The notes under the pieces were generated by a model that saw nothing but the letters and a program-made list of their open reading frames with translations, made no database searches and was not told the origin of the DNA. A stretch of 64,000 nucleotides of DNA. It comes from an uncultured delta proteobacterium. GTDB lineage: Bacteria > Desulfobacterota > Binatia > Binatales > Binataceae. Below are positions 13,271 to 64,000 of this stretch, piece by piece. The stretch covers positions 516,722-580,721 of the forward strand of contig CAWDTQ010000015.1 of the NCBI GenBank assembly GCA_963805315.1, in the 5' to 3' direction. The first letter of the stretch is position 1. Every line of letters begins with the position of its first letter. Made by a program: the position numbers and the translations under genes.

Positions 13271-13285
13271 ACCGGAGCACTTCTA

Positions 13286-33153: not shown

Positions 33154-33255
33154 GCGAAGCGCCTCCGCACGTTTGATGCCTGAGCGTCACTAAGTCTGCA
33201 AACATCGCACGAAGCAACGGCGAATTGCTTTCGCCCGCCATCTTACTTCTTGCCG

Positions 33256-36065: not shown

Positions 36066-36067
36066 CG

Positions 36068-36502
36068 ATGTCAGCGACGAATCGAGCGGCCGATCACGAC
36101 AGTTTTCAAGACGGCGCTCAGAATCAGATTGCTCACTTCGATGTTTCGAGTCTTACACGCGCTGAATGCGCTGCACTGCTCGCGCAAACGAAATCTCTTG
36201 AAGGCCGCCTGCTCGCGCGCTTGCTGACGAGCGATGAAAGCACAGCGGGTGAAACAAACAGCGATGGCGACCGATTGCTGGTCGAGCAGGCGGCGCAACT
36301 CCTCTCGGTCACACGAAGCTGGCTTTATCACCACGCGAAGCGCCTCGGGCTCGCGGTCGAGCTCGGCGACGGCACGCTTCGGTTTTCCTTTCTCGCGTGT
36401 CAACGATACATCGCGCATTCGGCTGTCGCGGTTCCTCGCACGCGCGGAGCACGTTATCGCTCCAGGATTCGGTTTGAGACTCGACAAGAAGCCATTTTAT
36501 AA
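36068..36502 (+). CDS. HTH DNA-binding protein (excisionase-like), immediately upstream of the integrase
   Basis: From the ATG at 36068: MSATNRAAD…LLVEQAAQLLSVTRSWLYHHAKRLGLAVELGDGTLRFS…. The position and HTH pattern suggest Xis. Confidence 0.5.
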   Translation: MSATNRAADHDSFQDGAQNQIAHFDVSSLTRAECAALLAQTKSLEGRLLARLLTSDESTAGETNSDGDRLLVEQAAQLLSVTRSWLYHHAKRLGLAVELGDGTLRFSFLACQRYIAHSAVAVPRTRGARYRSRIRFETRQEAIL

Positions 36503-36543
36503 TGCCTCGTCGCTAATCGACAGTTCGCATAGGAGGACAGAGA

Positions 36544-37703: not shown

Positions 37704-37728
37704 GTAACAAGGCAGTCCCGTAGCCTCG

Positions 37729-38091
37729 CTATTCTTCCTGATGGCAAACGGCTTCTATGTTGTTGCCGTCGGGATCCTTCACGAAGCCGCCGTAGTAGTT
37801 GGCGGAATATTGGGGACGGAGACCGGGCTTGCCGTTGTCCTTGCCGCCGGCGGGCAGAGCGGCATCGTAGAACGCCTTCACGGCAGCGCGGTTCTTGGCC
37901 ACGAATGCAACATGGACAGGTCCGGTCGGTTCGCCCTTGGCCAAACACAAGGCGGGCGCGTCCTTGGGGCCAAAGACCACTATTCCGTCCGCGTCGTACT
38001 GCACGCTGAAGCCAAGCGGCGCCAGCGCGGCGCTGTAGAAGCGCTTGCTCGAGTTGAGGTCCTTCACCTTAAGCATGATGTGATCAAACAT
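37729..38091 (-). CDS. VOC/glyoxalase family protein
   Basis: MFDHIMLKVKDLNSSKRFYSAALAPLGF…VHVAFVAKN…GGFVKDPDGNNIEAV is 120 aa from the ATG at 38091. Confidence 0.8.
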   Translation of the reverse strand: MFDHIMLKVKDLNSSKRFYSAALAPLGFSVQYDADGIVVFGPKDAPALCLAKGEPTGPVHVAFVAKNRAAVKAFYDAALPAGGKDNGKPGLRPQYSANYYGGFVKDPDGNNIEAVCHQEE

Positions 38092-38218
38092 GACTCTCTC
38101 CTTCTCTGACTTTCGTTTTCTCGACCCGGACGGCTCTCGTGCCGCGCCGCCGGCGCCTAACGACACGCAAGAGCGCGCGCAGTCGTGTGAACGCTGCGCG
38201 CGCTTTTTTCGTCCGCCC

Positions 38219-38244
38219 TCAAAAGTTTTACAAACTGTTACAGT
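38219..38244. repeat. Candidate integrase arm-type site (right)
   Basis: tcaaaagttttacaaactgttacagt lies ~70 bp inside the island from the att core and matches 24445-24470 at 22/26 positions. Confidence 0.35.
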
Positions 38245-38311
38245 TTTCGCATCCTGCCAATCGCGTGGTCATTTGAAGCGCTACAAAGCATTGAATCCAA
38301 AAGGGTTTTGA

Positions 38312-38354
38312 GTGAGCCGGCCGGGACTTGAACCCGGGACCCTGTGATTAAAAG
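38312..38354. repeat. att repeat (tRNA-proximal)
   Basis: Identical 43/43 to 24292-24334. It overlaps the 3' half of tRNA-Lys. Confidence 0.85.
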
Positions 38355-38385
38355 TCACATGCTCTACCACCTGAGCTACCGGCTC
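38313..38385 (-). tRNA. tRNA-Lys (anticodon UUU)
   Basis: Hand-folded cloverleaf: GAGCCGG-TA-GCTC-AGGTGGTA-GAGC-A-TGTGA-CTTTTAA-TCACA-GGGTC-CCGGG-TTCAAGT-CCCGG-CCGGCTC-A. It is 73 nt with a perfect acceptor stem, and CCA is not encoded. Confidence 0.9.
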
Positions 38386-44607: not shown

Positions 44608-44689
44608 TAATTGTAGTACTGGGTGCAGGGGTCACCCCTGCCCAAGGAAGCGTGAAACCCACGGAGGGTTTCACATTCAATAAAGTGAT
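44608..44689. repeat. Two-hairpin REP-like element, copy A (inverted relative to copies B and C)
   Basis: aattgtagtactgggtgcaggggtcacccctgcccaaggaagcgtgaaacccacggagggtttcacattcaataaagtgat. Its hairpins are gcaggggtcacccctgc and gtgaaaccc-N6-gggtttcac. Confidence 0.7.
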
Positions 44690-44701
44690 CTACCCTTCCA
44701 A

Positions 44702-49631: not shown

Positions 49632-51650
49632 CTCCGGGCGCCGCGACGTCGGCGAGTTCCGGCATCTCGGTCGATGAGCGGCTGAGCGCGGACGCGATTG
49701 CGGCGCGCTCGCGCACGTTCGGCCACATTACTATCACCGTGCCGAGCACCATCATCAGGCCGCCCGCCCACAGCCAGAACACCAGCGGCGTCAGGAATAC
49801 TTCGAAGGTCGCGGTCTGTCCGTCGTCGTCGATTCCGGCGAGCACGACGTAGAGGTCGCTCAGCGGCGTCGAGCGGATCGCGACTTTGGTCGCGGGCTGC
49901 TGCGGACGCTTGAAGAACAGCTTCGCCGGCGACATCACGGTGATTTCGCGGCCGTCTGAGCTCAGCACCTGGACGCGCGCGGTCGCGCTCTCGAGATGCG
50001 GCGTGTCGGTCTCGTACAGACCCTGGAAGCGCAGCGTGTACGAACCGATCGTGAAGCTGTCGCCCGCGTGCACGCTCTTTTTCACTTCGGTGCGAAAGAA
50101 CGACGAGCCGACAATTCCGATGAACGCGACGATCACGCCGACGTGGATGATATAGCCGCCGTAGCGGCGGTTGTTCTTGGCCACGAGATTGACGAGCGCC
50201 TTGGCGCGCGGCTCGGCGACCATGTGGCGGCGTGCATTAACCCCGCGGCGAAACTCGACGAGCACGGTGCCGAGCACGAACGCGGCCAGTGAGAACGCAG
50301 TCAGCACATACCATTGTCGGAGGCCGGCGACGGCGGCGACGATTCCGGTCGCGACGCCGATCGTTACGGGCGCGGCGAAGCTTCGTACGAGATTGTCAGC
50401 GGTCGTGCGTCGCCACGCGATCAGCGGCCCGATCCCCATCAGGAAGACGAGGCCGAGCGCCAGCGGTCCGTTGACGCGATTGAAGAACGGAGGTCCGACG
50501 GTGATCTTAACGCCGCGCACCGCTTCCGACAGCACCGGAAAAATCGTGCCCCAGAAAACTGCGAATGCGATCCCGACCAGCATCAGGTTGTTGAACAGGA
50601 ACGCCGCTTCGCGCGACAGGTACGATTCGAATTCGGCGGGACTGCGCAGTTCGCTTCGAGCGGAAAATCAGAAGCGCGGTGTAGGCGAGGGTCACCGCTA
50701 TCAGGAAGCTGAGAAAATATGGGCCGAGGCCGGACTGCGTGAACGAATGCACCGACGAGATGACGCCGCTGCGCGTGATGAACGTGCCGAAGAGCGTTAG
50801 TCCGAACGCTAGTCCGATTAGCGAGAGGTTCCAGACCTTCAGCATGTCCTTGCGTTCCTGGATCATCACCGAATGCAGATACGCCGTCATCACCAGCCAC
50901 GGCATGAATGCTGCGTTCTCGACCGGGTCCCACGCCCAGTAACCGCCCCAGCCCAGCACCTCGTAGGCCCATCGCGCGCCGAACATATTGCCGAGCGTGA
51001 GAAAGAACCACGAAAAAATCGCCCAGCGGCGCGTCGAGCGAATCCATCCGTCGTCGAGTTTGCCGGTGATCAGCGCGGCGGCGCCGAATGCGAACGGCAC
51101 GGTCGCGCTGACGTAGCCGGTGTAGAGACGACGGCGGATGAATCGCCATCCAGTAGTTCTGCAGCAGCGGATTCAGGTCGGAGCCTTCGGCGGGAACCGC
51201 CGCGAGCAAATCGAATGGACGCGTGACGAAGTTCAGCATCAGCAGAAAAAAGATCGCGACGCCCGCGAGCACCGCGAGCGCATACGGGGCGATCTCGGGA
51301 TTACGGCGGCGATTCTGGAACGCGGCGATCGACGTGAAGATCGACAGCAGCCACGTCCAGAACAGCAGCGAGCCCTGCTGCCCGCCCCATAGCGAGGTGA
51401 TTTTGTAGACGGTGGGGAGCGTGGTGCTGGAATACGCGGCGACGTACTCGAGCGAGAAGTCGCTGCGAAGAAGCGCGACCCACAGCACGACGACCGCGAT
51501 CGTGACCATCGCGCACATCGCCCAAATCGCGTGGCGGGCGCTAACGACGAAATCGGGCGAATTGCGGCGCGCGCCGTAGATATTCGCGACGATGGAATAG
51601 ACGGCGAGAATCAGCGCGATCGCGAGCGCGAGGTTGCCAAGTTGCGGCAT
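49624..51650 (-). pseudogene. ccmF: Haem lyase CcmF, at least 2 frameshifts as sequenced
   Basis: MPQLGNLALAIALILAVYSI…SLWGGQQGSLLFWTWLL… is in the ORF 50583-52127 frame. …WAYEVLGWGGYWAWDPVENAAFMPWL… is ORF 50507-51100. The C-terminal third is ORF 49624-50583. Confidence 0.85.
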
Positions 51651-51664
51651 CAAAAAAACCCGCT

Positions 51665-52127
51665 CTATTGTGATTGCTTGGGCTTGTACTTGGAAGGGCA
51701 GCTCGTGAGCACCTGGGTCGCGGCTATGGCGCCGTCGGCGCCGAGCTTGCCTTCGACAATAACGTCGCGGCCGGGCGCGAACATGTCGGGCTTGGGCTCG
51801 CCGGCAGCATACGACGCGGAACGAGACGGGATCGGACGCGACATCGGATGCCCCTGCGGAAACGGGTTTGACGGCGGCAGCGTCGACGTCGGGAATCGGC
51901 ACGATTTCAAATTTGAGGGTGAGCGAGTTCGGGTCCCAGTTGATGGTGTCCGGCTTCACGCGGCCGGCTACGCGGATCGCCTGTCCGCCGAGCTCGCTTT
52001 GGCGCGCGGCCACCTCGGGTACGGTCAGGTAGTACTCGGAGGTGGTGCGAATCGCACTGAAGATAAGGTATCCGATGGCGGCGGCGATCAGGCCGACGCC
52101 AATGAAAAATCGCGGACGGATTCGCAT
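51665..52127 (-). pseudogene. ccmE: Haem chaperone CcmE, Cys-variant (CxxxY), one frameshift as sequenced
   Basis: MRIRPRFFIGVGLIAAAIGYLIFS…AIRVAGRVKPDTI…FRVV joins the second frame: YAAGEPKPDMFAPGRDVIVEGKLGADGAIAATQVLTSCPSKYKP. The haem-binding position reads CPSKY instead of HxxxY. Confidence 0.8.
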
Positions 52128-52135
52128 TGCAAAGT

Positions 52136-52200
52136 AATTGTAGTGAAACCCGCGGTGGGTTTCACGCTTCCTTCGGCAGGGGTGACCCCTGCACCCAGTG
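52136..52200. repeat. Two-hairpin REP-like element, copy B
   Basis: aattgtagtgaaacccgcggtgggtttcacgcttccttcggcaggggtgacccctgcacccagtg. It lies in the ccmE 5' leader region. Confidence 0.7.
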
Positions 52201-52270
52201 AAAGGAAAGATGCGGGACTTCGTCCCTGTTAGGAAGTTGGTTTAGGGAAAAGATTTCTCCGCGACCGGTT

Positions 52271-52361
52271 CCCCTTCCCACAGTGGGAAGGGGTTAGGGG
52301 TTAGGTTCCGCGCATCGACGGCCGCCGCATATTTTCCTCTCCCTGTCAGGATAGGGAGAGG
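52271..52361. repeat. Short GC-rich hairpin repeats (family 2)
   Basis: ccccttcccacagtgggaagggg (52271-52293) and cctctccctgtcaggatagggagagg (52336-52361). Relatives occur at 57812-57879 and 42234-42266. Confidence 0.5.
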
Positions 52362-52663
52362 CAAGCGCTGCTCGCGCTTTGGCTTTCGGACCAATCTGTA
52401 CTACGGCGGACGCACTAATCCGCTGCGTACTTCACCAGCAAACCTACTACCAAAACGGTGGCTGCAAGGAATATTGGCCCCCAAAACAAGAAAACGCTCG
52501 CACCGATACGGGAACGACCAGCAATTGCCACTTCGCGCTTCCACCAGTGGTTCAACTGCTTTAGCTCGCTAGGCGTTCTTCAGATTGGTTGCATTCAGAG
52601 ATTTCTAAGGCAGCCGGAGAAAATCCCGCCAGCAGAAGCACGTCGATCAAGTTCTGCCTGTAG

Positions 52664-52804
52664 TCACGGCATTGCTGATAAGAAATCGAACGTCAACCGC
52701 TTCGTCAGACCTACCATGCTGCCCCTCGCCGGAGGAGTGATGAACTTCGGCACCATCAAGTACCAGCCCACAAGGGCGATCGCGGCAGCGTGGCGGGGCT
52801 TCAT
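52664..52804 (-). CDS. Small secreted hypothetical protein (short paralogue)
   Basis: MKPRHAAAIALVGWYLMVP… shares its N-terminus with the upstream neighbour, and the remainder diverges. It may be a decayed copy. Confidence 0.3.
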   Translation of the reverse strand: MKPRHAAAIALVGWYLMVPKFITPPARGSMVGLTKRLTFDFLSAMP

Positions 52805-52805
52805 T

Positions 52806-53093
52806 CTATTTTTCCTTGAGGCGCGGATCGTCGGATGCGATGAACAGTGGGAAGCACAGAGGCCCCATAAGCTCGTAGCCTTCGCCGTTCTGAAAGGGAT
52901 GGCATCCCTCTGAGATTTTGTGGTTGCATTCAACTTCGGTGTCGAAGGTCGCGTCGCGGGTCCATTTGCTAAGCGGAGTTTCGCGGTACTGGCCATTCTT
53001 AAAAGATTGTGACGGAGGCAGAATCAGATACCAGCCGGCAAGCGCGAGCGCGGCAGCGTGGCGAGGCTTCATCAACATTGAGTTATCAGACAC
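52806..53093 (-). CDS. Small secreted hypothetical protein
   Basis: (MSDNSML)MKPRHAAALALAGWYLILPP…PLSKWTRDATFDTEVECNH…. The start codon is ambiguous (53093, 53078 or 53072). Confidence 0.4.
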   Translation of the reverse strand: MSDNSMLMKPRHAAALALAGWYLILPPSQSFKNGQYRETPLSKWTRDATFDTEVECNHKISEGCHPFQNGEGYELMGPLCFPLFIASDDPRLKEK

Positions 53094-53183
53094 GCGCGGG
53101 ACCGACAGATGGCGGACTCCCTACGCGGGCGTTGCTCGCTTCAGTCAGGATGACACAAAAGGGATCAGAAGAAGCGGATCGGG

Positions 53184-53669
53184 CTAGTCGGCTTCGAGCA
53201 TTACTATTGCTGCTGCGGCCATTCCTTCGCTGCGGCCCAGGGCGCCTATTCCTTCTGGGCTCGAGGCTTTCACGTTTATTCGCGACTCTTCTGCGCCGAG
53301 TGCTGACGCGAGCCGCTTGCGCATCGCATCGAGATGCGGCTTCAGTTTCGGCTGCTCGGCGAAGATCGTCAGGTCGGCGTTGCCGAGACGCCATCCCTGG
53401 TCGCTCGCTAGTTTCCAGACACTCGCGAGCAGAGCAATCGAGTCTGCGTTTTTGTAGCGGGGATCTGAATCGGGAAAATGCCGGCCGAGGTCGCCAGCGC
53501 CGATTGCACCGAGGATCGCGTTGGCCAGCGCATGTGCGGCGACATCGGCGTCCGAATGCCCGCGAAGTCCCTTGTCGTGCTTGATCTCGACGCCGCCGAG
53601 CACGAGCCGGCGGCCCGCCTCGAGCGGATGAAAATCAAATCCGTTACCTACGCGAAAACGCGTCGCCAT
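53184..53669 (-). CDS. ispF: 2-C-methyl-D-erythritol 2,4-cyclodiphosphate synthase
   Basis: RVGNGFDFHPL…LVLGGVEI…GLRGHSDADVAAHALANAILGA…GDLGRHFP…. Confidence 0.95.
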   Translation of the reverse strand: MATRFRVGNGFDFHPLEAGRRLVLGGVEIKHDKGLRGHSDADVAAHALANAILGAIGAGDLGRHFPDSDPRYKNADSIALLASVWKLASDQGWRLGNADLTIFAEQPKLKPHLDAMRKRLASALGAEESRINVKASSPEGIGALGRSEGMAAAAIVMLEAD

Positions 53670-53783
53670 TGCTCCAACCCCCGCCCGACGAGCGCATCAT
53701 TTGCGTTGCGCCCGAATTCGTTGACAACCGCCATTTCAGCCGCCAAGCTTTTCCTCATCGCAATCCCAGGAGGATCGTCCGCG

Positions 53784-54074
53784 ATGCCCGCATTTGCAAA
53801 GAACCCGAAATTCATCATCGGCACAATCGTCGTCCTGTGGGTGGCCTACGTCATTTACGCGAACTTTCAGATCGACATGGTCACGTTTTACCTGCTGCCC
53901 TTCAGCATCCTGACGCTGAAGCTCAGGCTTTCGGCAGTGATAATCAGCGCCGCGCTCTTCGGGTCGATCGCGACAATCGTAATTCACTGGCTATGGGTAC
54001 GACCCTCGAACAGTTCGTCGGCCGCGACCGCGCCCACGTCGCCGTCCGCTCCAAGGAGCAGCACTGTCGCCTGA
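53784..54074 (+). CDS. Small membrane protein (LapA/DUF1049-like)
   Basis: An AGGAGG RBS precedes MPAFAKNPKFIIGTIVVLWVAYVIYANFQIDMVTFYLLPF…, which has two TM helices. The 3' end overlaps convergent moeA by 91 nt, so the end is uncertain. Confidence 0.4.
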   Translation: MPAFAKNPKFIIGTIVVLWVAYVIYANFQIDMVTFYLLPFSILTLKLRLSAVIISAALFGSIATIVIHWLWVRPSNSSSAATAPTSPSAPRSSTVA

Positions 54075-55252
54075 GCGCCCGCTTTCAACATCGTTTCAGT
54101 TGACGGACCGATCAGCAGACCGTCGGCGCGCGAGAGCGAACTGAAAATCCCCGAGCCCTGGCCGCCGGTCGGAGTCGCGCGCCATCCGTCGGCGTCGCGC
54201 TCGAGCTTGACCCGTACGAACTCGGTGAGGTCACGGGAAATTTTGATGTCGACGGCGCATCGCGCCCGCACGCGCGGTAAGCCGACGCGACTCTTCCCGC
54301 TCATCTTGAGCAGCGCGGGTCGCGCGTACAGGTAAAAGCACACGAGCGTGGAGACGGGATTGCCCGGTAGGCCGAAGATCGGGCGGTAACCGACGGTGCC
54401 GAACTTGAGCGGACGCCCCGGCTTCTGCGCCACGCCGTGAAACAGCTGGCGCATCCCAAGCTCGTCGAGCGCGCCCTTAACGTGATCGAACTGACCCACC
54501 GAGACGCCGCCGGTCGAGAGCACCGCGTCGAAGGTCATCGCCTCGGCCAGGCGATCGCGAATCTCGCGCGCGTCGTCGCGCGCCACCTTGAGGATGACAG
54601 CCTCGGCTCCCGCTTCGCGCACCGCGCCGGCCAGCGCGTAGGCGCTCGAGTTGACGACCTGCGCGCCGACGGGCTGCTGATCGACGTCGACGAGTTCGTC
54701 GCCGGTGGCGACGATCGCGACGCGCGGGCGCCGAACGACCTCGACCATCGCGCGATTCACCGCCGCCAGCATCCCAAGGTCAGCCGGCGTAATCGTCTTG
54801 CCCTGCGCCATCACGAGTTCGCCGAGGCGCAAGTCCTCGCCGCGCGGCCGGATGAACGCGCCTTTTTCAGTCGCGACCAGAAATTCGACGACGTCGCCCG
54901 TGCCGCGCGTTCGTTCGACCGGGACGATCGCGTCCGCACCTTCGGCGGTCGGAGCGCCCGTCATCGTGCGAACCGCTTGACTGACGCCGACGCGGCGCGA
55001 CGGCATCTGGCCGGCGCCCACGGTCTCGACGACGGTCAGCTTGACGGGTGTTGCCTCGGACGCCTTCGCAAGGTCGGCGGCGCGGACTGCGTAACCGTCC
55101 ATCGCGGAGTTGTCGAAGCCGGGGATGTCGCGCGGCGAGGCGATTTGCTCGGCGAGCACGCGGCCGAGAGCGTTTAGAATTGGAATTCGCTCGACGCCTA
55201 GCGGAGCGACGTTTTCAAGGACGATTTGCAGGGCCTGGTCGGCGCTGATCAT
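53984..55252 (-). CDS. moeA: Molybdopterin molybdenumtransferase MoeA
   Basis: 422 aa containing …PGFDNSAMDGYAVRAADL…, …VAIVATGDELV… and …LSTGGVSVGQFD…LPGNPVS…. Confidence 0.9.
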   Translation of the reverse strand: MISADQALQIVLENVAPLGVERIPILNALGRVLAEQIASPRDIPGFDNSAMDGYAVRAADLAKASEATPVKLTVVETVGAGQMPSRRVGVSQAVRTMTGAPTAEGADAIVPVERTRGTGDVVEFLVATEKGAFIRPRGEDLRLGELVMAQGKTITPADLGMLAAVNRAMVEVVRRPRVAIVATGDELVDVDQQPVGAQVVNSSAYALAGAVREAGAEAVILKVARDDAREIRDRLAEAMTFDAVLSTGGVSVGQFDHVKGALDELGMRQLFHGVAQKPGRPLKFGTVGYRPIFGLPGNPVSTLVCFYLYARPALLKMSGKSRVGLPRVRARCAVDIKISRDLTEFVRVKLERDADGWRATPTGGQGSGIFSSLSRADGLLIGPSTETMLKAGAQATVLLLGADGDVGAVAADELFEGRTHSQ

Positions 55253-55290
55253 GCGGAGGAGAGGATACGCCGGTCTTGGGGGAAGGGTAA

Positions 55291-55386
55291 ATCACTTCAT
55301 TGAACGTGAAACCCGCCATGGGTTTCAAACTTCCTTGGGCAGGGGTGACCTCCTTCGGCTTCGCTCAGGACAGGCTCTGCACCCAC
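55291..55386. repeat. Two-hairpin REP-like element, copy C (with a 26-bp insertion in hairpin 2)
   Basis: atcacttcattgaacgtgaaacccgccatgggtttcaaacttccttgggcaggggtgacc[tccttcggcttcgctcaggacaggct]ctgcaccca. The bracketed insert resembles a third repeat family (…cgcttcgctcagg…). Confidence 0.65.
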
Positions 55387-55457
55387 CGCTTCAGGTCACG
55401 AATGAACCTGCGACAGGCTAATGCCGGTCCGGCGCAATGAGCTAAAAGAGACTGAAA

Positions 55458-56441
55458 TTAGAACTCGACGTGTTCGGCGCTAGCGTGGGTTTCTGAATCC
55501 ACGGGAACGCGGACGCTGTACGTGCGCGCATTCGGAGGAACGATGTCGCGCAGCAGGGCCGGATTGAGCTCGTGCAGGCGCTCGAGCGTCGTCCCGTGAT
55601 TGAGCGCGACCCGGCTCAGCGGAGTGCCTCCGCGCACCGGCAGCATCTGGTAGACGGGTGGGTCGTCGAGCTTGACGGGCGTGATTCCGTAACTGTCGGC
55701 ATGATGCGCGATATATGCAACGGCCATGAAGCGTCCGAGCAACCCGCGGGTTCGCCGCGGCAGCCGATTACCGAACTTCTCCATCTTGGGGCCGCGCAGC
55801 GACCAGTAGCGGTCTATCGCCCGGTCGCCGTTGTTCCACGCGACCAGGGTCATCGGCCAATCGTCGCCCGCCTTGTCGTGCAGGGTGGCCAGGTACTCGG
55901 CGGCCGCCTTCGTGGACATTACGGGGTCGCGGCGCTCGTCGACGTAGCTGTCGATGCGGAGGCCGAATTGCTTGGCGGTGCCGCTATTGAATTGCCATGG
56001 GCCCTTGCCCTGCTTGGAAAATTCGCTTTCGGCGAAAGCCAGGTAGACAAGGTCGTCGGGAAGACCGTAACTCCTCAGTACCCGGACCATATCGGGCAGG
56101 TAGGGGTGACTGCGGTCGAAGGTATCCTGTAGATGATAGGGAGAACTCAGGAAATCCGAAACGTAATGGCGAACGGCGCGATTAAGGAGAATCGGGAAGG
56201 GTGCGACCGGCTGAGGCAGTGGGAGCACGTAGGACGTCGAAATCGGCCTGGCGCCGGCCTCGGCGGGAGTCTCGAGCTCAAAGCCGGTGCTTTGGCCGGT
56301 CAGGCTGGGCGACGCCGGCCCTTGCGAAGCGTCGGGCGTGTCGAAATCCTGTGCAAGAGCGCGAGTGGACGCCCATCCGGCGACAAGCAGGACCGCCATC
56401 AGCGCAACAAGCATTCGATAGATAGACTTAGTTGTACGCAT
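55458..56441 (-). CDS. Lytic transglycosylase (SLT domain) with C-terminal LysM-like domain
   Basis: Signal peptide, then …LAFAESEFSKQGKGPWQFNSGTAKQFGL…AAAEYLATLH…AWNNG… (SLT). The C-terminus is …YQMLPVRGGTPLSRVALNHGTTLERLHELNPAL…. Confidence 0.8.
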   Translation of the reverse strand: MRTTKSIYRMLVALMAVLLVAGWASTRALAQDFDTPDASQGPASPSLTGQSTGFELETPAEAGARPISTSYVLPLPQPVAPFPILLNRAVRHYVSDFLSSPYHLQDTFDRSHPYLPDMVRVLRSYGLPDDLVYLAFAESEFSKQGKGPWQFNSGTAKQFGLRIDSYVDERRDPVMSTKAAAEYLATLHDKAGDDWPMTLVAWNNGDRAIDRYWSLRGPKMEKFGNRLPRRTRGLLGRFMAVAYIAHHADSYGITPVKLDDPPVYQMLPVRGGTPLSRVALNHGTTLERLHELNPALLRDIVPPNARTYSVRVPVDSETHASAEHVEF

Positions 56442-56587
56442 TCTCCCCCGAGAAAGATGACCCCAACCGTACCGACCGACGCGACCGGGATCAACCCATT
56501 CGAGGTGGATAAGCTATTAAAAAGTCTAATGCCAAACGGCGTATCTGTTGATAAATCGTTGCAGATGCTGACGAATATTGGCGCTGG

Positions 56588-57793
56588 ATGGCGGAAATAT
56601 TAGTTACGTCAAGTTTCAGCGGATCGGGTTCTTTGTGTTACCGTCGAGAAAACGGCACCCTGTTCCAAGGCAAAACTGACCGGACACCAATTTTGAAGCT
56701 TTGGCGCGACATTATAGATAGCCTGACCGACGCGATCGTCGTGCTCTCGTCCGCCATGGAACCCTTGGTGGTCAATCCGGCGGCGGAGACGATGCTCGGG
56801 GTTTCCCAGATGAGTGCGACGACGGTGGCAGACCTCGTCCGCCAGAACGACTGGCTGGGCCGGATGGTCGGAGCCTGCCTCGATAGCGGTCAGGATTTGG
56901 GCGATACCGAGACGGTGCTGACGACGGGCCCGCGGGAGCTGGCGGTTCGCGTCGAGGTATCCCCCCTGCTGAGCGCCGAGGGACGGCCCGGGGGCGTCAT
57001 TATATTGCTGCACGACCTGTCCCACGAAAAAGGCGCAGCCGAGGCCGCCAGCGATGGCGACCTGAACCTGCGGCTGTCGCCGGCCGGGCTGGCGCACGAG
57101 GTCAAGAATCCGCTCACGGGCATCAAGGGAGCAGCCGAGCTGATGGCCGGGATGTTTCCCGATGACGCGCGCGCGCAGCAGTATTGCGGCGTGATCCTCG
57201 ACGGCGTCAATCGGATAGCGGCTCTCGTCGAGCAGGTGCTGGTGGTCAGCGGGCCGCAACGCCTGGCGCATGAGCCGGTCAACATCCACATGGTGCTGCA
57301 TCAGGCGCTCCGGATGGCGGGGTTGTTCCCGCAACCGCCCGCGGGGGTCGTCGTGTTGCAGGATTTCGATCCCAGCCTGCCCGACGTGATCGGAGACGCG
57401 GGCGCATTGGAGCGAACGTTTCTGAATTTGATCAAGAATGCGGTCGAGGCGATCGGCGAGTCGGGCACGATTCGGCTGCATACGCGAATCGAACGGGAAT
57501 TCAGGATGACGGCCGAGGGGCGTCGTCGCCAGTTCCTGCGGGTCGAAGTCAGCGACAGCGGCGTCGGCATCCCGGAGGATCAGCTCTCGCAACTGTTCAC
57601 GCCGTTCTTCACCACGAAGCCGGCGGGCACCGGGCTGGGCCTCGTGCTATGTCAGCGAATCATCGCGCTACACGGCGGCAGACTATGGGCAAATCGCGGC
57701 GGCGTCGATCGAGTAAAGGGCACGCCCAAATCCAAGGATGGAATGACATTCAAAGTGACGCTGCCAATGATGGCATCGGAAAAACGCCCCTAA
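56588..57793 (+). CDS. PAS-containing sensor histidine kinase (NtrB-like)
   Basis: The H-box is LAHEVKNPLTGIKGAAELM. The N and G boxes are …FLNLIKNAVEA…DSGVGIPED…FTTKPAGTGLGLVLCQRII…. No cognate response regulator lies downstream. Confidence 0.85.
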   Translation: MAEILVTSSFSGSGSLCYRRENGTLFQGKTDRTPILKLWRDIIDSLTDAIVVLSSAMEPLVVNPAAETMLGVSQMSATTVADLVRQNDWLGRMVGACLDSGQDLGDTETVLTTGPRELAVRVEVSPLLSAEGRPGGVIILLHDLSHEKGAAEAASDGDLNLRLSPAGLAHEVKNPLTGIKGAAELMAGMFPDDARAQQYCGVILDGVNRIAALVEQVLVVSGPQRLAHEPVNIHMVLHQALRMAGLFPQPPAGVVVLQDFDPSLPDVIGDAGALERTFLNLIKNAVEAIGESGTIRLHTRIEREFRMTAEGRRRQFLRVEVSDSGVGIPEDQLSQLFTPFFTTKPAGTGLGLVLCQRIIALHGGRLWANRGGVDRVKGTPKSKDGMTFKVTLPMMASEKRP

Positions 57794-57815
57794 TAACCGT
57801 CGCTGTCTCCCCTCT
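57630..57815. repeat. 186-bp direct repeat, copy 1 (authentic 3' end of the kinase gene plus 22 bp)
   Basis: Hand alignment to 61392-61577 gives 167/186 identical with no gaps. Confidence 0.85.
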
Positions 57816-57879
57816 CCCTGTAAGGAGAGCTTTGCGTAACTCGGCTGGGATTTCTTCCCCTCTCCCTGTTAGGGAGAGG
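57812..57879. repeat. Short GC-rich hairpin repeats (family 2)
   Basis: ctctccctgtaaggagag (57812-57829) and cctctccctgttagggagagg (57859-57879). Confidence 0.5.
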
Positions 57880-58067
57880 ATGAAGGTGAGGGTCCGATCA
57901 CAGCGCGCAAGTTAGGGCGTCGCGTTCCGCGCAACTGATTACCCGCCTCGCCCGCTTACGGGAGAGGCCGCGCCGAAGGAGCGGGTGAGGATGCGCGCGC
58001 GATTCAAGATTCTGCCTCTGCTGTTGATGAAGCCCTCGAACAATCTTCATCGCGATACTTCTTGGGC

Positions 58068-58150
58068 TGTCATTCTGAAGGCGCGTAGCGCCGGTAGAAT
58101 CCCGGACCTCTGGGCTGCGGGACCCTACCGCTTCGCTTCAGGGCGACACA
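58068..58150. repeat. MITE-like element with imperfect terminal inverted repeats (family 3)
   Basis: tgtcattctgaaggcg…cgcttcagggcgacaca. The termini pair at about 12 of 15 positions. Related 'cgcttc(g)ctcagg' cores occur at 53139-53160 and 55355-55375. Confidence 0.45.
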
Positions 58151-58277
58151 GAGCCTGCTGGAGAGTTGCAGGAGGTGCAGACACCGTACGCGGTATGTCG
58201 TTCGGCCAGCCCGAGCATGAATGCCAAATAGTAGGTTAAAGCTACAATTCCAAACGCAAAAGGGTATTAGTTTTGCC

Positions 58278-58306
58278 TTGACATGATATTAGCAGCCGTA
58301 GAGTAT
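58278..58306 (+). promoter_or_regulatory. Candidate sigma-70 promoter of the large surface-protein gene
   Basis: TTGACA (58278-58283), a 17-nt spacer, then GAGTAT (58301-58306). A GGGGAGGA RBS lies at 58335-58342, before the ATG at 58348. Confidence 0.3.
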
Positions 58307-58347
58307 CGCGCTATTCCCGCTCGACAATCGTTTTGGGGAGGACCCAC

Positions 58348-61284
58348 ATGTTCGGATCAAATAATCCCGGACAGCTACGATGGTATCTTGCTGCTCGCAG
58401 GACTCCGTTCTCGGCCCTCTCGCGTGTACTCCTTGTTGTCCTCTTAATCTCTGTCATTCCACTCTATGCCTGGGCCGCATCGTCGTCCCCACTGACCGTG
58501 TCCGTTGCGCCGGGTTCCGCGACGGCGGGCTCGGCGACCGCTTTGATCTTCACTTTTGATTCCTCGGTTAGCTCCAAAGGAAGCGTTTCGATCAAGGTTC
58601 CGCCGTCATCGGGCGCGCCGTGGTCACCACCTCAGGCATCGAACTCTTCGCTACCGGGGTTCGTGGAGGCCAAGAGCGGCACATGCCATTCGGCAAGCGT
58701 GGCGAGCGCCTCGGGCGGCACGATGATGATCAACTTCAAATGCCGTAAGCGGGACACATTCCAGGTCATTTACGGGGGCGGGACTGCCAAGGCGAACGCA
58801 GCCACCCTGGTCGGAAACTATACCTTCATGACGACGCTCGTGGTTGGCAAAAAATCAGCGGCGGTGCCCGTTCAGCCCACCATTGCGGTGAATCCTGGTC
58901 CAGCGGCGCGTTTCACCGTTACCGGTCTCGTGAATGTTGTCGCAGGTACATCGCAGCTCGGTATGGTTACCGCATTTGATCAGTTTAACAATGTCGCGAC
59001 CGGCTACAACGGAACCGTGGACTTCGCCTCCAGCGATCCGCAGACCGGGGTGCTGTCCGACATGAGCGAGATGGCTGCGAATGGTCTGGCGTTCTTCGGC
59101 GTATCGTTCAAGACAGCGGGGTCACAGTCGGTGACTGCAAGTGATTCCGTGAACTCAGCAATCACCGGGATGGATACGGTGACCGTTAGTCCGGCTGCGG
59201 CGGCGCGCCTGGCCGTAACCGGCCTTGTGAACGCGGCTGCGGGAACACCTCAGACTGCAACCGCGACCGCTTACGATATTTTCGGTAACGTCGTGACCGG
59301 CTACGACGGAACCGTCAACTTCACCACCAGCGATGGACAGGCAGGTTTTACCCCAAACAGCGTGATGGCGTCGTTAGGCGTGGCATCGGCGCTAACGGCG
59401 CTCAGGACCGCTGGGCCACAGTCGGTGACCGCGACTGATTCCGTGAACTCGGCCATCACCGGTACAGAAGACGTGACCATCTCTGCGGCGCAGGGCGCCA
59501 GCATTCAGGTCATTGTAAGCCCCCTTCCACAGACGGCGTACGTATGGAAGGACCCGGTTGGATGCAGCGTGGGCGCCTTCCTCCTCGACGCCTACGGCAA
59601 TCACGTCACTTCGAGCGACCTGTTGCATTTCACCTCGACCGACCCTCTGGCGCACATACCGGCAACACTCACTCCGGGTCTTTTCACTGTAGGGCTCACT
59701 GGATTCACCACGCAGGGGCAACAAACAGTGACCGCCACTGACCCCTCGATCATTGTTCCCTCCACCCAAAAACCACTGACGGGCAGCACTACCGTAACCG
59801 TAATCGGGCCCGTGGCGGTTGACGACCAGTATTATTTCCTGGATCCGACTCACTCAGCCACTTCCGTGTACTCCATGAACGCACTCCAAAACGACCTGCC
59901 TGACGACGTCGGCGGCTTTCTCCTGGTGAATGGTAACGAAATCGATTTCGGATACTCAACCATTACCCAGCAACCCGAATACACGGACGCCAGTAATCAA
60001 GTGCACCAGGTCGGGTTGTTGAGCATCACCGAGAACGGTGATTATCTGGCTTGGGATCTCAATCCGGCGGTAGCGCCCGCAGTTCCGCAGGGCGTCATCT
60101 ATGATACCTGCCCGACGGCGACAACTTTAACGACGCCGGCCTGCAACATCGCCAACCCCATCACAGCGGCTTACACCGTGACCGACGGTTTCAACATCTC
60201 CTCGCCTGCTACGATAACCATGAATCTCACCACCCCTTCTACTCCGGAGGTCATCGGTACGACTCCGAATGTCACTTACCAAGGCGGCGGCGGGAATACT
60301 GAGACGGTGTCGGTAGTCGGCATGGGGAGCACCCAGATAACTGTCGAGGACCCCGCGATTAGCGCGACCGCTACTTCCGATCCGACCATCCCGGACGACG
60401 GCGCGGTGGATGTGACAATGAGCTTTAAACCGACGATCGTGTCTGGCTGCACCGCTGACTGCATGGACCTGAGCAAATGTACTATTTGCCCAGACACCGT
60501 GACCCTTATGGCGACTGCTGTGGTGCCTTCGGGCTTAGGCGTCACAAGCACCGGCAGCGCTACACCGCTTCTCGCAAGTGTCGCCACACCCCTGTTCAAC
60601 ACTCCATTGCGTGATCTTTGGAGTAGTAACGTCAATTTTTCGGGAGGCATCCCTACGCCGACTGGGTTGCTACCGGTCACGCTTATAAACCCGAACTTCG
60701 TTGGTTTGGTGCCTCCCACGTTTTTCGGAGAAATTTTTGAAGCAAGCACCATCGCAGGAGGCCCTGGTGCATCGCTCGCAATGAGCTCGCCCGGAGTGAG
60801 CTCGCCGGGTATCACCTTCAGTTGCGAATTGGCTGGAAAAAGCACCCCGTGCCCGAATGTTCTGATAAGTCTTGATGTAGCTGGTGCTACCGTAGCACCA
60901 GCTAACACACCCCCTACCTGCGACAGTGAACTCGTTTTCTGCGGCAACGGCCCACCGACTGGTCAACTAGCAATTGGCGCCAACAGTTGGTCGCTGAACG
61001 ACGCGTTGCCCGTAGATGTTATTCTCTCCCAAACCGCCGCCAATGCCACTGGCACCGTCACTATAAATGTATTTAGTGAACTTTTCACAAGTTGCGGAAC
61101 GAACTGCGCGACATATGCAGCTGGCAGCAGTTTTGTTGTGGGCACGCAGGATATAACTCAAGGAGCCCCAAACTTCTCGTTCAAGTTCCCCAGCGCCGGT
61201 TATTGGGCCGTACAAGCTGTCTATTCAGGCGACGCCAACGACAACACGAGCGGAGCAGCCACTGTTTATGACGTTACCAACTGA
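58348..61284 (+). CDS. Large secreted/surface protein with tandem Ig-like (Big_1/invasin-like) repeats, a cadherin-like domain and a C-terminal Ig-like domain
   Basis: Signal peptide (…LLVVLLISVIPLYAWAASS). Three ~100-aa repeats (…AARFTVTGLVNVVAGTSQLGMVTAFDQFNNVATGYNGTVDFASSDPQ…SVTASDSVNSAITG…). Then VAVDDQYYF…NALQNDLPDD…AAYTVTDGFN…, and the C-terminus …GYWAVQAVYSGDANDNTSG…. The track starts at TTG 58333; the ATG at 58348 is the preferred start. Confidence 0.8.
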   Translation: MFGSNNPGQLRWYLAARRTPFSALSRVLLVVLLISVIPLYAWAASSSPLTVSVAPGSATAGSATALIFTFDSSVSSKGSVSIKVPPSSGAPWSPPQASNSSLPGFVEAKSGTCHSASVASASGGTMMINFKCRKRDTFQVIYGGGTAKANAATLVGNYTFMTTLVVGKKSAAVPVQPTIAVNPGPAARFTVTGLVNVVAGTSQLGMVTAFDQFNNVATGYNGTVDFASSDPQTGVLSDMSEMAANGLAFFGVSFKTAGSQSVTASDSVNSAITGMDTVTVSPAAAARLAVTGLVNAAAGTPQTATATAYDIFGNVVTGYDGTVNFTTSDGQAGFTPNSVMASLGVASALTALRTAGPQSVTATDSVNSAITGTEDVTISAAQGASIQVIVSPLPQTAYVWKDPVGCSVGAFLLDAYGNHVTSSDLLHFTSTDPLAHIPATLTPGLFTVGLTGFTTQGQQTVTATDPSIIVPSTQKPLTGSTTVTVIGPVAVDDQYYFLDPTHSATSVYSMNALQNDLPDDVGGFLLVNGNEIDFGYSTITQQPEYTDASNQVHQVGLLSITENGDYLAWDLNPAVAPAVPQGVIYDTCPTATTLTTPACNIANPITAAYTVTDGFNISSPATITMNLTTPSTPEVIGTTPNVTYQGGGGNTETVSVVGMGSTQITVEDPAISATATSDPTIPDDGAVDVTMSFKPTIVSGCTADCMDLSKCTICPDTVTLMATAVVPSGLGVTSTGSATPLLASVATPLFNTPLRDLWSSNVNFSGGIPTPTGLLPVTLINPNFVGLVPPTFFGEIFEASTIAGGPGASLAMSSPGVSSPGITFSCELAGKSTPCPNVLISLDVAGATVAPANTPPTCDSELVFCGNGPPTGQLAIGANSWSLNDALPVDVILSQTAANATGTVTINVFSELFTSCGTNCATYAAGSSFVVGTQDITQGAPNFSFKFPSAGYWAVQAVYSGDANDNTSGAATVYDVTN

Positions 61285-61361
61285 CAATGGGTTGCCGCTA
61301 ACACCATCATACGGGCAACTCAAAGCACCCATTGAAGGTATCGCGCCTTCCCGCTTTTGTA

Positions 61362-61558
61362 TTCAGATAGGCGAACTGGTGACCTCGAAATCCGGGCTGG
61401 GCCTCGTGCTATGCCAGCGAATCATCGCGCTGCACGGCGGCAGACTATGGGCCCAGCGCGGCGGCGTCGATCGAGTAAAAGGCACGCCGACATCCAAGGA
61501 CGGAATGACATTCAAGGTGACGTTGCCAATGATGTCGTCAGAGAAACGCCCGCAATAA
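61362..61558 (+). pseudogene. Orphan 3' fragment of a histidine-kinase gene (paralogous/xenologous copy of 57600-57793)
   Basis: It encodes …QIGELVTSKSGLGLVLCQRIIALHGGRLWAQRGGVDRVKGTPTSKDGMTFKVTLPMMSSEKRPQ*, compared with …TTKPAGTGLGLVLCQRIIALHGGRLWANRGGVDRVKGTPKSKDGMTFKVTLPMMASEKRP* in the intact kinase. There is no upstream kinase body. Confidence 0.8.
61364..61392. repeat. 29-bp direct repeat, copy 1
   Basis: cagataggcgaactggtgacctcgaaatc matches 63794-63822 (cagatagccgaactggtgacctcgaagtc) at 27/29 positions. Confidence 0.7.
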
Positions 61559-61577
61559 TCGTCGCTGTTTCCCCTCT
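61392..61577. repeat. 186-bp direct repeat, copy 2
   Basis: See 57630-57815. There are 19 mismatches, and most coding-region mismatches fall at third codon positions. Confidence 0.85.
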
Positions 61578-61713
61578 GCTCGGCTCAGACGTTCCAGAGA
61601 CACATTTTCGGACAACCCGATCGTCCCCGAATGGGGATTGACACCAGACCCTCAACTCATGAGATGGTCGCGTGATTATGCTGAGGTAAAACTGGCCTCG
61701 GCATCGGTCAAAA

Positions 61714-62865
61714 GTGTCAACAGAGATCAGGCAGAGTAATTGGTTGAAGAAAGGGCTTTGTGTGCTGGCCGTCCTGATGATCGGCGCTGCCATCGCGATT
61801 CACGCCTACGCGCAGCCCTCCAGCCCCCCGGCGGCCTCGGCGCAAGGCGAGGCGCCTGAGCTCCGTGTGGTCACGATAATTGCGCCGCCGAGCGTTATGG
61901 AACAGAACGGCACCCTGACCGGATTCAGCATCGATCTTTGGAATGCGGTCGCCGCACGGCTGAAGGTAAAGACGAGGTACCAGATCGTGCCCGACGTGGG
62001 CGCTTTGGAGGAGGTGATGCGATCCAAAAATGCCGACATTACCGTCGGCCTCTTTATAACTTCGGCGCGTGATACTGATTTCGATTTTTCGATCCCAACA
62101 TTGCAAGCAGGCCTGCAAGTAATGGTCCGCGATACTGGTGAGAAAGCAGAAACTGCAAGCCCGGTTTGGGATATGCTCCGTCTGCTGTTTTCGCGAACGA
62201 CGGTAGTGTGGCTCGGCATCGCCCTGCTGCTCGTCCTAGTCCCGGCCCATCTGGTCTGGCTGTTCGAACGACGGCGCCCGAACGGAATCATTTCGAGCCC
62301 GAACTACCTTCCGGGAATCTTCGAGGCATTCTTTTGGGCCATCTCGACGCTGACGGGATCACCGGAGGGGATGCCGCATCAATGGGTGGCGCGCACGTTC
62401 GCAATCTTCTGGATATTCGCTGGTGTGGTTTTCGTTGCGTTCTATACGGCCCAGCTAACGACTACCTTAACCGTCGAGCAGATTCGCGGCTCTATCGAAG
62501 GGCCGGGCGATTTGCCTGGCAAGCAAGTGGCCACGATGGCAGGCAGCACCGCCGTCGATTATCTTCGGCAGCAGAACGCACAGGTCCAGGAGTTCACGAC
62601 GACTGATCAAGTGTATAAAGCTCTCCTCGACAAGAAAGTGGATGCGGTGGTCTTGCCCGCGCCACTGCTCCTCTACTACGCAGCTCATGCGGGAAAGGGA
62701 CGGGTGAAGACGGTCGGTCCCGAATTTAACACTGCGCCAGCCGCCATCATGGTGCAGCTGGACAGTCCGCTGCGTAGGAAGATCAATCTTGCATTGATCG
62801 CGCTTCGTGAGAACGGCACCTATCAGCAGATCTACGACAAGTGGTTCGGCACCGCCGCCCCTTAG
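61714..62865 (+). CDS. Prokaryotic ionotropic-glutamate-receptor-like channel (periplasmic-binding-protein lobes interrupted by a pore module)
   Basis: SBP_bac_3-like lobe 1: VVTIIAPPSVMEQNGTLTGFSIDLWNAVAARL…FDFSIP. TM-pore-TM module: …WLGIALLLVLVPAHLVWLFE…FEAFFWAISTLTGSPEG…IFWIFAGVVFVAFYTAQLTTTLT. Lobe 2: …VATMAGSTAVDYL…VDAVVLPAP…YDKWFG. The exact start is uncertain (GTG 61714 or TTG 61744). Confidence 0.8.
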   Translation: MSTEIRQSNWLKKGLCVLAVLMIGAAIAIHAYAQPSSPPAASAQGEAPELRVVTIIAPPSVMEQNGTLTGFSIDLWNAVAARLKVKTRYQIVPDVGALEEVMRSKNADITVGLFITSARDTDFDFSIPTLQAGLQVMVRDTGEKAETASPVWDMLRLLFSRTTVVWLGIALLLVLVPAHLVWLFERRRPNGIISSPNYLPGIFEAFFWAISTLTGSPEGMPHQWVARTFAIFWIFAGVVFVAFYTAQLTTTLTVEQIRGSIEGPGDLPGKQVATMAGSTAVDYLRQQNAQVQEFTTTDQVYKALLDKKVDAVVLPAPLLLYYAAHAGKGRVKTVGPEFNTAPAAIMVQLDSPLRRKINLALIALRENGTYQQIYDKWFGTAAP

Positions 62866-62876
62866 GAAGCGCCAAC

Positions 62877-63725
62877 TTGAAGTGGCTGCGCTTGCAACTC
62901 GTGCCCATCGCCACGGTCTTGGTCTTGCTGCGGGGTGCCGTTCTGGCGGTGTCGGCACACGCGCAACAAGCCTCGACGCCTGCACCGTCGCCGAGCGCCA
63001 TGAGTGCTCAGGAGCTGGCAATCAGCGTCCACAACCCGTTCGAGGATTTCGTTAAAGTTCCGATTCAGTCCACCACCGGATTTCAACTAGGTCCGCATCA
63101 TAAGGTTGGCGATAGTGTGAACATCGAGCCGCTAGTGCCGTTCTCGCTGAATGCGGATTGGGACCTGTTCGCACGCCCGAGCCTGACCTTCACTTATGCG
63201 CCGACTCCGCATGAACAATCCGGACTGGAGGACTTCGAGACCTCTTTTTTTCTCACGCCTGCCAAAAACTCCACCTGGATCTGGGGCTTGGGTCCGATCT
63301 TTGACTTCCCCACTGCCAGCAGCTCGGAATTGGGAAGCGGCCGCTGGTCGGCCGGACCAACTGCGGCGCTGGTGTACTCGGAGGGCCCGTGGCTCAACGC
63401 CATCCTCACAGACCAACTGCTGTCGTTTGCCGGAAATCGCGAGCGCGGAAGTGTGAATCAGACCTACATCGAGCCCATGATCAGCTACAACCTTGAGAGC
63501 GGCTGGTACGCCGACGTCGATCCCGCCATTACCTACGATTGGACCGCTGATACCGCTAACGCTTGGACTATTCCGATGGGCGCCGATATCGGTAAGGCGT
63601 TCAAGATGGGCTCCCAAGATTTGAGTCTGCAGGTTGGCGCGTACGACTTTCTAAAGCGTCCAGATGGCGCACCGCAATGGATAGCCCGGGTGAGCGTAAC
63701 GTTTCTGTTCCCTCACGTGCACTAA
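62877..63725 (+). CDS. Putative outer-membrane beta-barrel protein
   Basis: TTG start 7 nt after AGGAAG. Signal peptide (L)KWLRLQLVPIATVLVLLRGAVLAVSAHA. Alternating amphipathic strands are present, with the terminal …WIARVSVTFLFP(HVH). The track ORF starts at 62841, inside the upstream gene. Confidence 0.6.
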   Translation: MKWLRLQLVPIATVLVLLRGAVLAVSAHAQQASTPAPSPSAMSAQELAISVHNPFEDFVKVPIQSTTGFQLGPHHKVGDSVNIEPLVPFSLNADWDLFARPSLTFTYAPTPHEQSGLEDFETSFFLTPAKNSTWIWGLGPIFDFPTASSSELGSGRWSAGPTAALVYSEGPWLNAILTDQLLSFAGNRERGSVNQTYIEPMISYNLESGWYADVDPAITYDWTADTANAWTIPMGADIGKAFKMGSQDLSLQVGAYDFLKRPDGAPQWIARVSVTFLFPHVH

Positions 63726-63793
63726 GTCCCGAACCGGCTTCTCGCGCGCAATCTCGCCGTGACCGACACATCGCGCCGAATCGTTGCCGGCAC

Positions 63794-63822
63794 CAGATAG
63801 CCGAACTGGTGACCTCGAAGTC
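63794..63822. repeat. 29-bp direct repeat, copy 2
   Basis: See 61364-61392. The sequence beyond it is unrelated to the kinase gene. Confidence 0.7.
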
Positions 63823-64000
63823 GTCGCAAATCTGAGCGGATGATCCGGCGCAAGCGACGCGCTGAACGAGCGCTCCAAACACTGCGCACCCGCCGCAGCG
63901 GGTGAACTTTTCAGCCTTACGCCCGAGCGCCAGCCGTGCTTTGATCGCATTATGGTCAACCTTCAGGACGCTGACGCCGCACTCGCCCTGAAGCCCCGCG

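Follow-up and report, generated by a model that had tools for sequence, protein, structure and literature searches.

The window analysed here, a 64,000-nt stretch of contig CAWDTQ010000015.1 from an uncultured member of the Binataceae, contains the 3' end of an ntrB/glnL-type sensor histidine kinase gene twice, as a 186-nt direct repeat on either side of a segment that carries a gene for a secreted protein with Ig-like repeats (Table 1). From sequence comparison we consider it fairly probable that this arrangement was produced by one homologous crossover inside the kinase gene combined with one illegitimate join, that is, by homology-facilitated illegitimate recombination (HFIR) with the allelic ntrB-ntrC spacer of another Candidatus (Ca.) Binatus lineage. 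The scar is one of recombination of a known kind in a hotspot, and not a new type of mobile element.

A window-wide repeat search and a direct count both gave an ungapped match of 167/186 positions (90% identity) between 57630-57815 (copy 1) and 61392-61577 (copy 2), reproducing what an earlier first-pass annotation of the same sequence had reported, and a repeat of this kind occurs only once within the window. Both edges were sharp in a MAFFT alignment; the left one is the breakpoint, and the right one lies 22 nt past the stop codon, where the alleles naturally cease to align. An identical run of 22 nt stands at the left edge, with runs of 23 (the longest shared by the two copies), 20 and 17 nt elsewhere in the repeat. 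Codons are intact in both copies: codon-wise comparison placed 17 nucleotide differences within 15 codons, 11 of which differ synonymously, while residues differ as N/Q, K/T and A/S and the reading frames end with TAA in copy 1 versus CAA and then TAA in copy 2, in line with the earlier count of about 11 synonymous changes, three altered residues and the stop codon. The remaining two differences are found in the 22 nt past the stop. Homologues of the intact kinase at 82-95% identity are named NtrB or GlnL and come from Ca. Binatus and Binataceae metagenome-assembled genomes (MAGs); its longest open reading frame (ORF) begins at 56588, and the start in relatives lies near 56690. Diverged direct repeats of a gene end are, taken alone, no indication of an integrative element.

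The two copies were compared with 56 related genomic loci (given L numbers below) and several metagenomic contigs. Kinase 3' ends of relatives were closer to copy 2 in 48 of 55 cases and to copy 1 in three, with ties in the others. The closest relative, L004 (95% protein and ~91% DNA identity), matched copy 2 at 154/167 positions versus 145/167 for copy 1, sided with copy 2 at 12 and with copy 1 at three of the 15 sites where it agreed with one copy, and encodes all four discriminating states of copy 2 (Q, T, S and the terminal Q). The copies diverge from each other by 10%, and from L004 by 13.2% (copy 1) and 7.8% (copy 2), the latter value being similar to the 6.3% of the upstream kinase (56824-57490). 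Because copy 2 is closer to L004 and to 48 of 55 relatives, and diverges from L004 like the upstream part of the gene, we take this leftover to be the native 3' end of the lineage and copy 1, situated in the intact gene, to be the imported one. The first-pass annotation had assumed the opposite, namely that the second copy evolved as part of a kinase gene elsewhere. Nor is its CAA a lost stop codon, CAA-TAA being the commonest kinase ending among relatives (C at that position in 39).

Divergence from L004 was elevated upstream of the repeat as well, reaching 11.7% in the segment 57493-57629, where the ratio to background inter-species distance was 0.88 vs 0.28-0.59 in the five adjoining 134-nt segments on the upstream side (56824-57493). 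The best change point in L004 divergence was located near 57490 (Fisher p = 0.046, uncorrected for scanning), which would fit a homologous crossover inside the kinase and upstream of the repeat, probably near this position. This observation bears on the single-crossover (Campbell-type) integration proposed in the first-pass annotation. By that route, a segment comprising the kinase 3' end, the Ig-like gene and a motif M at the right end of the insert would have been circularised, either in the donor or upon uptake, and inserted by one crossover in the 186-bp homology. We regard such an origin as unlikely, if well short of negligible. Direct repeats of the homologous segment do flank the insert, as that proposal had stressed, and a head-to-tail joint of the type expected from a circle is present; moreover, in E. 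coli conjugation, single crossovers of truncated circles gave duplications of 109-950 bp and outnumbered true HFIR events (PMC3240628). However, copy 2 is native-like and copy 1 donor-like from 57652 on, with no native/donor switch among the 15 informative sites from there, which would confine the crossover to the first 22 nt, and the reciprocal hybrid repeat copies expected of it were not seen. Donor-like divergence also seems to begin ~140 nt upstream of the repeat, albeit with weak statistics, and a comparable leftover in L026 (see below) measures ~42 nt, too short for a crossover of this kind.

The right end of the insert is marked by a second repeat, missed in the first-pass annotation: 61364-61392 (M1) and 63794-63822 (M2) are identical at 27/29 positions, against an expectation of zero in shuffled sequences. 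Motif M is almost invariant, with variable flanks, in L013, L014, L023, L035, L036 and L056. Since M1 copies the ntrC-upstream flank, the insert carries both flanks of the ntrB-ntrC spacer; and since M2 belongs to the conserved ntrC-upstream block, the right end of the insert is a chromosomal flank with no element-specific arm. In mirror image to the kinase repeat, the left edge of M1 is where the conserved motif begins and its right edge is the breakpoint. The final base of M1 (61392) forms junction J2 with copy 2, where the motif abuts kinase codon ~348 head to tail with a single base shared, and neither native context runs on across the joint. An ATG-initiated ORF of 96 aa (61268-61558) extends from the end of the Ig-like gene through M1 and continues without a change of frame into the remnant of the kinase. 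It arose as an artefact of the recombination junction, is no gene but a kinase leftover, and calls for caution in annotation, as a gene caller would probably report it as a small HATPase_c protein.

Simple tandem duplication was rejected, the flanks (186 nt and 29 nt) being the only shared parts while the interiors (the Ig-like gene vs the channel and 294-aa protein genes that follow copy 2) are unrelated. A microhomology patch (63812-63826 vs 57611-57625, 12/15 identical) lies 9 nt out of register with the joint and was not used as evidence, and repetitive extragenic palindromic (REP) elements were dismissed as the recombination substrate, neither breakpoint being within one. An assembly artefact, in which spacer alleles of two co-occurring strains were concatenated into a false tandem stack, appears improbable to us. 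It would agree with the Ig-like protein being on record from one contig only (635,710 bp), with L013 being a MAG contig of similar 'contig_N' name, maybe from the same type of pipeline, and with an exact-match scan of JGI metagenomes in which the junction 24-mer was not found. A joint without overlap makes an artefact unlikely, though, as a single shared nucleotide gives an overlap-based assembler no reason to make it. Two strain switches would also be needed, one of them at non-homologous positions, and the three cases with leftovers are three MAG records with different isolate names and breakpoints of their own.

Synteny upstream of the spacer is conserved (ispF, moeA, SLT, kinase). In distant Binataceae, ntrC and tenI are found 80-165 bp past the kinase (L044, L051-L055, L057, L059), and by this comparison ntrB-ntrC-tenI contiguity is the ancestral state in the family. 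Within Ca. Binatus the distance between kinase and ntrC ranges from 226 bp (L046) and ~450-560 bp (L011, L017, L030) through 1-3 kb in many loci to 4-9.5 kb (L045, L018, L037, L023, L022, L024, L001, L028, L009) and >10 kb in several, and the gene content of the spacer is unrelated between species. This range of sizes and the unrelated content identify the spacer as a hotspot and the two-component operon as split across the whole genus. The start of ntrC is expected ~230 nt past the window end because 63734-64000 matches conserved ntrC-upstream sequence; in L009, 20300-20373 matches window positions 63900-63974 and ntrC begins at 20634. The suggestion in the first-pass annotation that the insertion may have split a two-component operon is thus correct in that ntrC follows the kinase in relatives and its upstream region lies beyond the insert, but the operon had already been split in the genus before this event. 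An observation of its own is the spacer of L029 (11110-13106), which is packed with copies of short repeats (~57-230 nt, 87-95% identical) in arrays flanking ~1.2 kb.

A gene for a GluR0-like channel, always paired with that of the 294-aa protein (OMP), follows copy 2 in the window, and the two genes occupy the same spacer in L009, L022, L026, L031, L033 and L037. In L009 and L037 the GluR+OMP pair directly precedes ntrC. In L022 it lies within ~260 bp after the kinase, which is the arrangement predicted for an empty site. Locus comparison therefore agrees with the first-pass view of the cassette as an insertion, since L022 has the kinase followed directly by GluR+OMP. The Ig-like gene is absent from the ntrB-ntrC site in the 56 related loci and, like copy 1, counts as foreign to the recipient lineage.

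A profile of the kinase 3' end detected extra copies in three loci only: the window, L013 (13292-13363) and L026 (12190-12231; E = 3.7e-4). In L013, a copy of ntrC-upstream sequence (13129-13291) is followed within ~20 nt by the last 56 nt of a kinase gene (13293-13348) and then by REP elements like those after copy 1 of the window, the same head-to-tail logic with other breakpoints. In L026, the last ~42 nt of a kinase gene precede GluR+OMP and belong to a segment of 2.28 kb that the sister L024, colinear in other respects, lacks. The leftover of L013 is the more diverged copy and the one less like sister genomes, so that either the event there is older or its polarity is reversed.

The latter observation would also suit a reversed polarity in the window, with the Ig-like spacer and copy 1 native and the block of copy 2, GluR and OMP derived from an L004-related donor; such a block would have recombined by homology on the ntrC side, with an illegitimate join of its left end to the resident M. 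Both parts of this proposal seem to us unlikely, slightly more so than circle integration. L026 can likewise be read as an inserted block of kinase leftover, GluR and OMP, and the GC content at third codon positions (GC3) of the GluR and OMP genes is also low. On the other hand, the excess divergence of 57493-57796 from L004 would need a separate explanation, the distance of copy 2 to L004 equals the vertical expectation, and GluR+OMP stands beside ntrC in L009 and L037 and beside the kinase in L022.

The leftover starts 164 nt before the stop codon in the window, 56 nt before it in L013 and ~42 nt before it in L026, and this variation in breakpoints favours illegitimate joining over a site-specific enzyme. 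The first-pass annotation had also raised the possibility of an element that targets the kinase 3' end and brings a replacement end. By now, such an element would have to be without its integrase or mobilised in trans. The layout does resemble that of icd/icdC around e14 (PMC13626634), and the 22-nt identical run at the left edge of the repeat could pass for an attachment core, but the repeat contains other runs of similar or greater length. Neither an integrase nor any other recombinase was found between or beside the repeats in the ORF list or by Pfam searches of the ORFs tested across 50583-63725, and the absence of a recombinase noted in the first-pass annotation is borne out, the only credible ORF between the repeats encoding the 978-aa secreted protein. 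Together with a right arm that is a copy of the chromosomal ntrC-upstream motif, with breakpoints in L013 and L026 that do not coincide with that of the window, and with homologues of the Ig-like gene elsewhere that do not adjoin kinase fragments, this leaves a site-specific element very unlikely.

Equally far-fetched, in our estimate, is that the ntrB-ntrC spacer serves as a dedicated cassette-stacking site, where M and the kinase G2-box would act as sites of an unlinked and unrecognised recombinase. There is very little chance, in our view, that allelic spacers circularise as M-to-kinase-3' joints and reintegrate in an integron-like manner with no integrase on site. The conservation of M (29-55 nt, CACCAG-N9-CTGGTG) is otherwise unexplained, and the differing breakpoints of L013 and L026 argue against this highly improbable scheme.

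Under HFIR, the kinase of the resident locus would have been followed after ~150 bp by the genes for the GluR0-like channel and the 294-aa protein, and these by motif M, the ntrC-upstream region and ntrC. The incoming DNA would have come from a different Binatus lineage and represented its allele of this locus, contributing the 3' part of the kinase, REP elements, the Ig-like gene together with a promoter and terminator of its own, and the beginning of the ntrC-upstream block as far as motif M. On the left, homologous recombination would have taken place within the kinase, probably near 57490. On the right, where only ~30-60 nt of flank homology would have been available, the incoming DNA would have been fused illegitimately to the resident kinase at the counterpart of position 57630, with one base in common. 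Because a right-flank reach of a few tens of nucleotides would not have sufficed for a second, legitimate crossover, the donor spacer would have been added rather than swapped; an equivalent description is unequal crossover between allelic loci. As an outcome, the kinase ORF would have been kept but would now end in donor-type sequence, its 54 native terminal codons would have been pushed downstream, and the donor spacer would have been stacked ahead of the resident one, so that M runs head to tail into the displaced kinase end. What we infer from the present-day arrangement is in which order the events took place, where the left crossover fell and how the DNA entered.

A number of points weigh against this reconstruction. 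HFIR joins usually share a few nucleotides of microhomology, and here there is one. The change point near 57490 is weak at its uncorrected p value, and the polarity argument draws on 17 sites and on a single close relative, L004, itself a contig of 3.5 kb. The donor order (kinase, REP elements, Ig-like gene, M, ntrC) was not found in any genome of the comparison set, the closest homologues of the Ig-like gene are located in other contexts, and the JGI scan returned no exact match to the junction. The more diverged state of the L013 leftover counts on the same side.

The content of the insert was largely as described in the first-pass annotation (repeat-rich non-coding DNA, a promoter-like element and an Ig-repeat gene), with the protein measuring 978 aa. 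The short REP-like elements of its left part recur in both orientations in spacers of several relatives, and a sigma-70-like match lies upstream of the cassette gene at 58221-58248. The 978-aa protein has no Pfam match of its own, none being significant even at E<=5, and the label 'Ig-like' denotes its repeat pattern and the domains of distant homologues, which bear Big_1, invasin or filamin domains. DNA homologues of the gene (84-86%) in L065, L066 and L067 have unrelated surroundings, with Mu-like prophage genes nearby in L065; no relatives of the protein were found in the metagenome scan. The promoter and signal-peptide region (58194-58396) is common to other genes and heads a 275-aa ORF in the spacer of L022, while the L065 homologue is without ~850 bp of repeats (58392-59238). 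These patterns suggest reuse of a promoter-leader module and deletion as the way in which Ig repeats come to vary in number. The lower GC content remarked on in the first-pass annotation was confirmed for the insert (57.3% vs 63.9% in the kinase; GC3 64% vs 79%), but the resident GluR and OMP genes downstream are likewise low (58-59%). An integron gene cassette was ruled out, with no inverted-repeat site in 61285-61392 except the terminator-like hairpin and no integrase nearby. An Rfam search of 56400-64000 at E<=1 gave zero matches.

HFIR has been described in Acinetobacter, Streptococcus pneumoniae, Pseudomonas stutzeri and E. coli conjugation (PMC3240628). The locus studied here is similar in that one end is probably homologous (in the kinase), the other is joined non-homologously near the anchor, and genes are added without a recombinase. 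It differs in that we infer the event from sequence, in the allelic donor and the head-to-tail duplication of both flanks, and in having only 1 nt at the joint and no recipient loss besides the replaced kinase tract. HFIR is also the proposed mechanism behind displaced 'orphan' 3' ends in Rhs, contact-dependent inhibition (CDI) and Vibrio cholerae type VI secretion system (T6SS) effector-immunity arrays (PMC5361080). There too, a conserved upstream part of a gene serves as anchor and new modules shift the old 3' end and the downstream genes back, arrays being built by repeated events. The gene concerned here, however, is a housekeeping sensor kinase and no polymorphic toxin, immunity-gene logic is lacking, and the variable part is intergenic cargo instead of the gene's own C-terminal domain.

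Prophage e14 and phage 21 integrate into icd and leave the C-terminal pseudogene icdC, according to the account given in PMC13626634 with reference to Hill et al. 1989. Likewise in the window, the insert supplies the 3' end of an intact gene, a diverged C-terminal fragment with mostly synonymous changes remains at the far end, and recombination between the direct repeats could remove the insert. In contrast to e14, with its integrase and fixed att site, no integrase, variable breakpoints and a far end of chromosomal flank are seen here. Recombination hotspots between conserved core genes are a general concept, which the present locus resembles in that unrelated cargo, mostly without mobile-element genes, lies between the same two genes in different species. 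Unlike in that general case, it is a two-component operon that is split, and three genomes keep scars of addition, not replacement.

Two conserved non-coding segments upstream of ntrC were also recorded. The first, CAGATAGCCGAACTGGTGACCTCGAAATC (window 63794-63850), is preceded by CAC, which yields the inverted repeat CACCAG-N9-CTGGTG, and in several Binatus species precedes ntrC by ~450-530 nt, with sites at 14610 in L013, 13269 in L014, 9208 in L023, 12044 in L035 and 12304 in L036. A coding role for M was rejected, since a 1-nt indel interrupts the reading frame in L013 and L014 and none of the frames is maintained, and so was a conserved RNA structure, for which only an invariant 7-bp stem and no covariation were seen. 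Two matches in viral contigs, with similarity limited to ~20 nt around the motif, were taken as chance and dropped. Motif M could be a binding site for a regulator. The second segment (63876-63960), GGGTGAACTTTT.AGCCTTACGCC...GCCGTGCTTTGATCGC.TATGGTCAAC, is the most widely conserved part (>20 related loci), includes the inverted repeat TTGATC-N8-GGTCAA, is duplicated in L013 and L035, and is probably the ntrC promoter or operator.

Table 1. Coordinates of features at the ntrB-ntrC spacer of the window
Feature	Position	Strand	Evidence or remark
ntrB/glnL-type sensor histidine kinase, intact	56588..57793	+	Pfam PAS, HisKA, HATPase_c; homologues 82-95% identical
Probable start of imported tract in kinase (suggestive only)	57490..57629	+	divergence from L004 rises
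Repeat copy 1: last 54 codons of intact kinase and 22 nt	57630..57815	+	donor-type 3' end
REP-like non-coding DNA	57794..58193	.	palindrome CCCCTCTCCCTG..AGGGAGAGG at 57857-57879; GCGATTCAAGATTC element at 57999-58012
Promoter and 5' leader of cassette gene	58194..58347	+	conserved with L022 15238-15442 (84%) and L065 9462-9666 (73%)
978-aa secreted protein with ~98-aa repeats, Ig-like by homology; cargo gene	58348..61284	+	signal-peptide-like N-terminus and repeats
Terminator-like hairpin and T-run after cargo gene	61334..61360	+	sequence
M1: truncated copy of ntrC-upstream motif, right end of imported spacer	61364..61392	+	ntrC-upstream profile match, E=2.7e-5
Repeat copy 2: kinase 3' end without the rest of the gene, leftover	61392..61577	+	HATPase_c positions 70-109 only (Pfam)
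GluR0-like ligand-gated channel with periplasmic binding domain, resident cargo	61714..62865	+	Pfam SBP_bac_3, Lig_chan, Lig_chan-Glu_bd
294-aa protein (OMP), family not assigned, always paired with channel gene; resident cargo	62841..63725	+	neighbourhood comparison
Conserved ntrC-upstream region	63734..64000	+	matches 250-500 nt upstream of ntrC in >20 relatives
M2: native copy of 29-nt motif, CAGATAGCCGAACTGGTGACCTCGAA(A/G)TC	63794..63822	+	within conserved ntrC-upstream block

Elsewhere in the window, 43 nt from the 3' end of tRNA-Lys(UUU) form an exact direct repeat (24292-24334 and 38312-38354; the tRNA gene itself is at 38312-38385, minus strand) around ~14 kb that include genes for a BsoBI-like restriction endonuclease (26050-26946) and a tyrosine integrase (36234-37703). 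The region (24292-38385) is a classical integrative island and provides a true site-specific contrast to the kinase locus. A second dispersed family of REP-like palindromes, GTGAAACCC....GGGTTTCAC...CAGGGGTGACCCCTG, is located between genes in both orientations (44618-44699, 52143-52199 and 55281-55350), and a direct repeat of 190 nt with 86% identity and 239-nt spacing was observed at 4441-4630 and 4680-4869.

In consequence of the proposed event, the kinase would have stayed intact with three substitutions and the loss of its terminal Gln, a secreted-protein gene with its own promoter would have been gained, and at least 6.2 kb would now lie between ntrB and ntrC. Homologous recombination between the 186-bp repeats could remove the insert again, as at icd/icdC. 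The locus illustrates, for an uncultured soil phylum, how cargo accrues in nature between conserved genes without mobile-element machinery: an allelic spacer from a relative would have been added and not exchanged, and copies of both flanks persist as a readable scar. That ntrB and ntrC of Ca. Binatus are split by a hypervariable spacer matters for the annotation and interpretation of nitrogen-regulation genes in this group.

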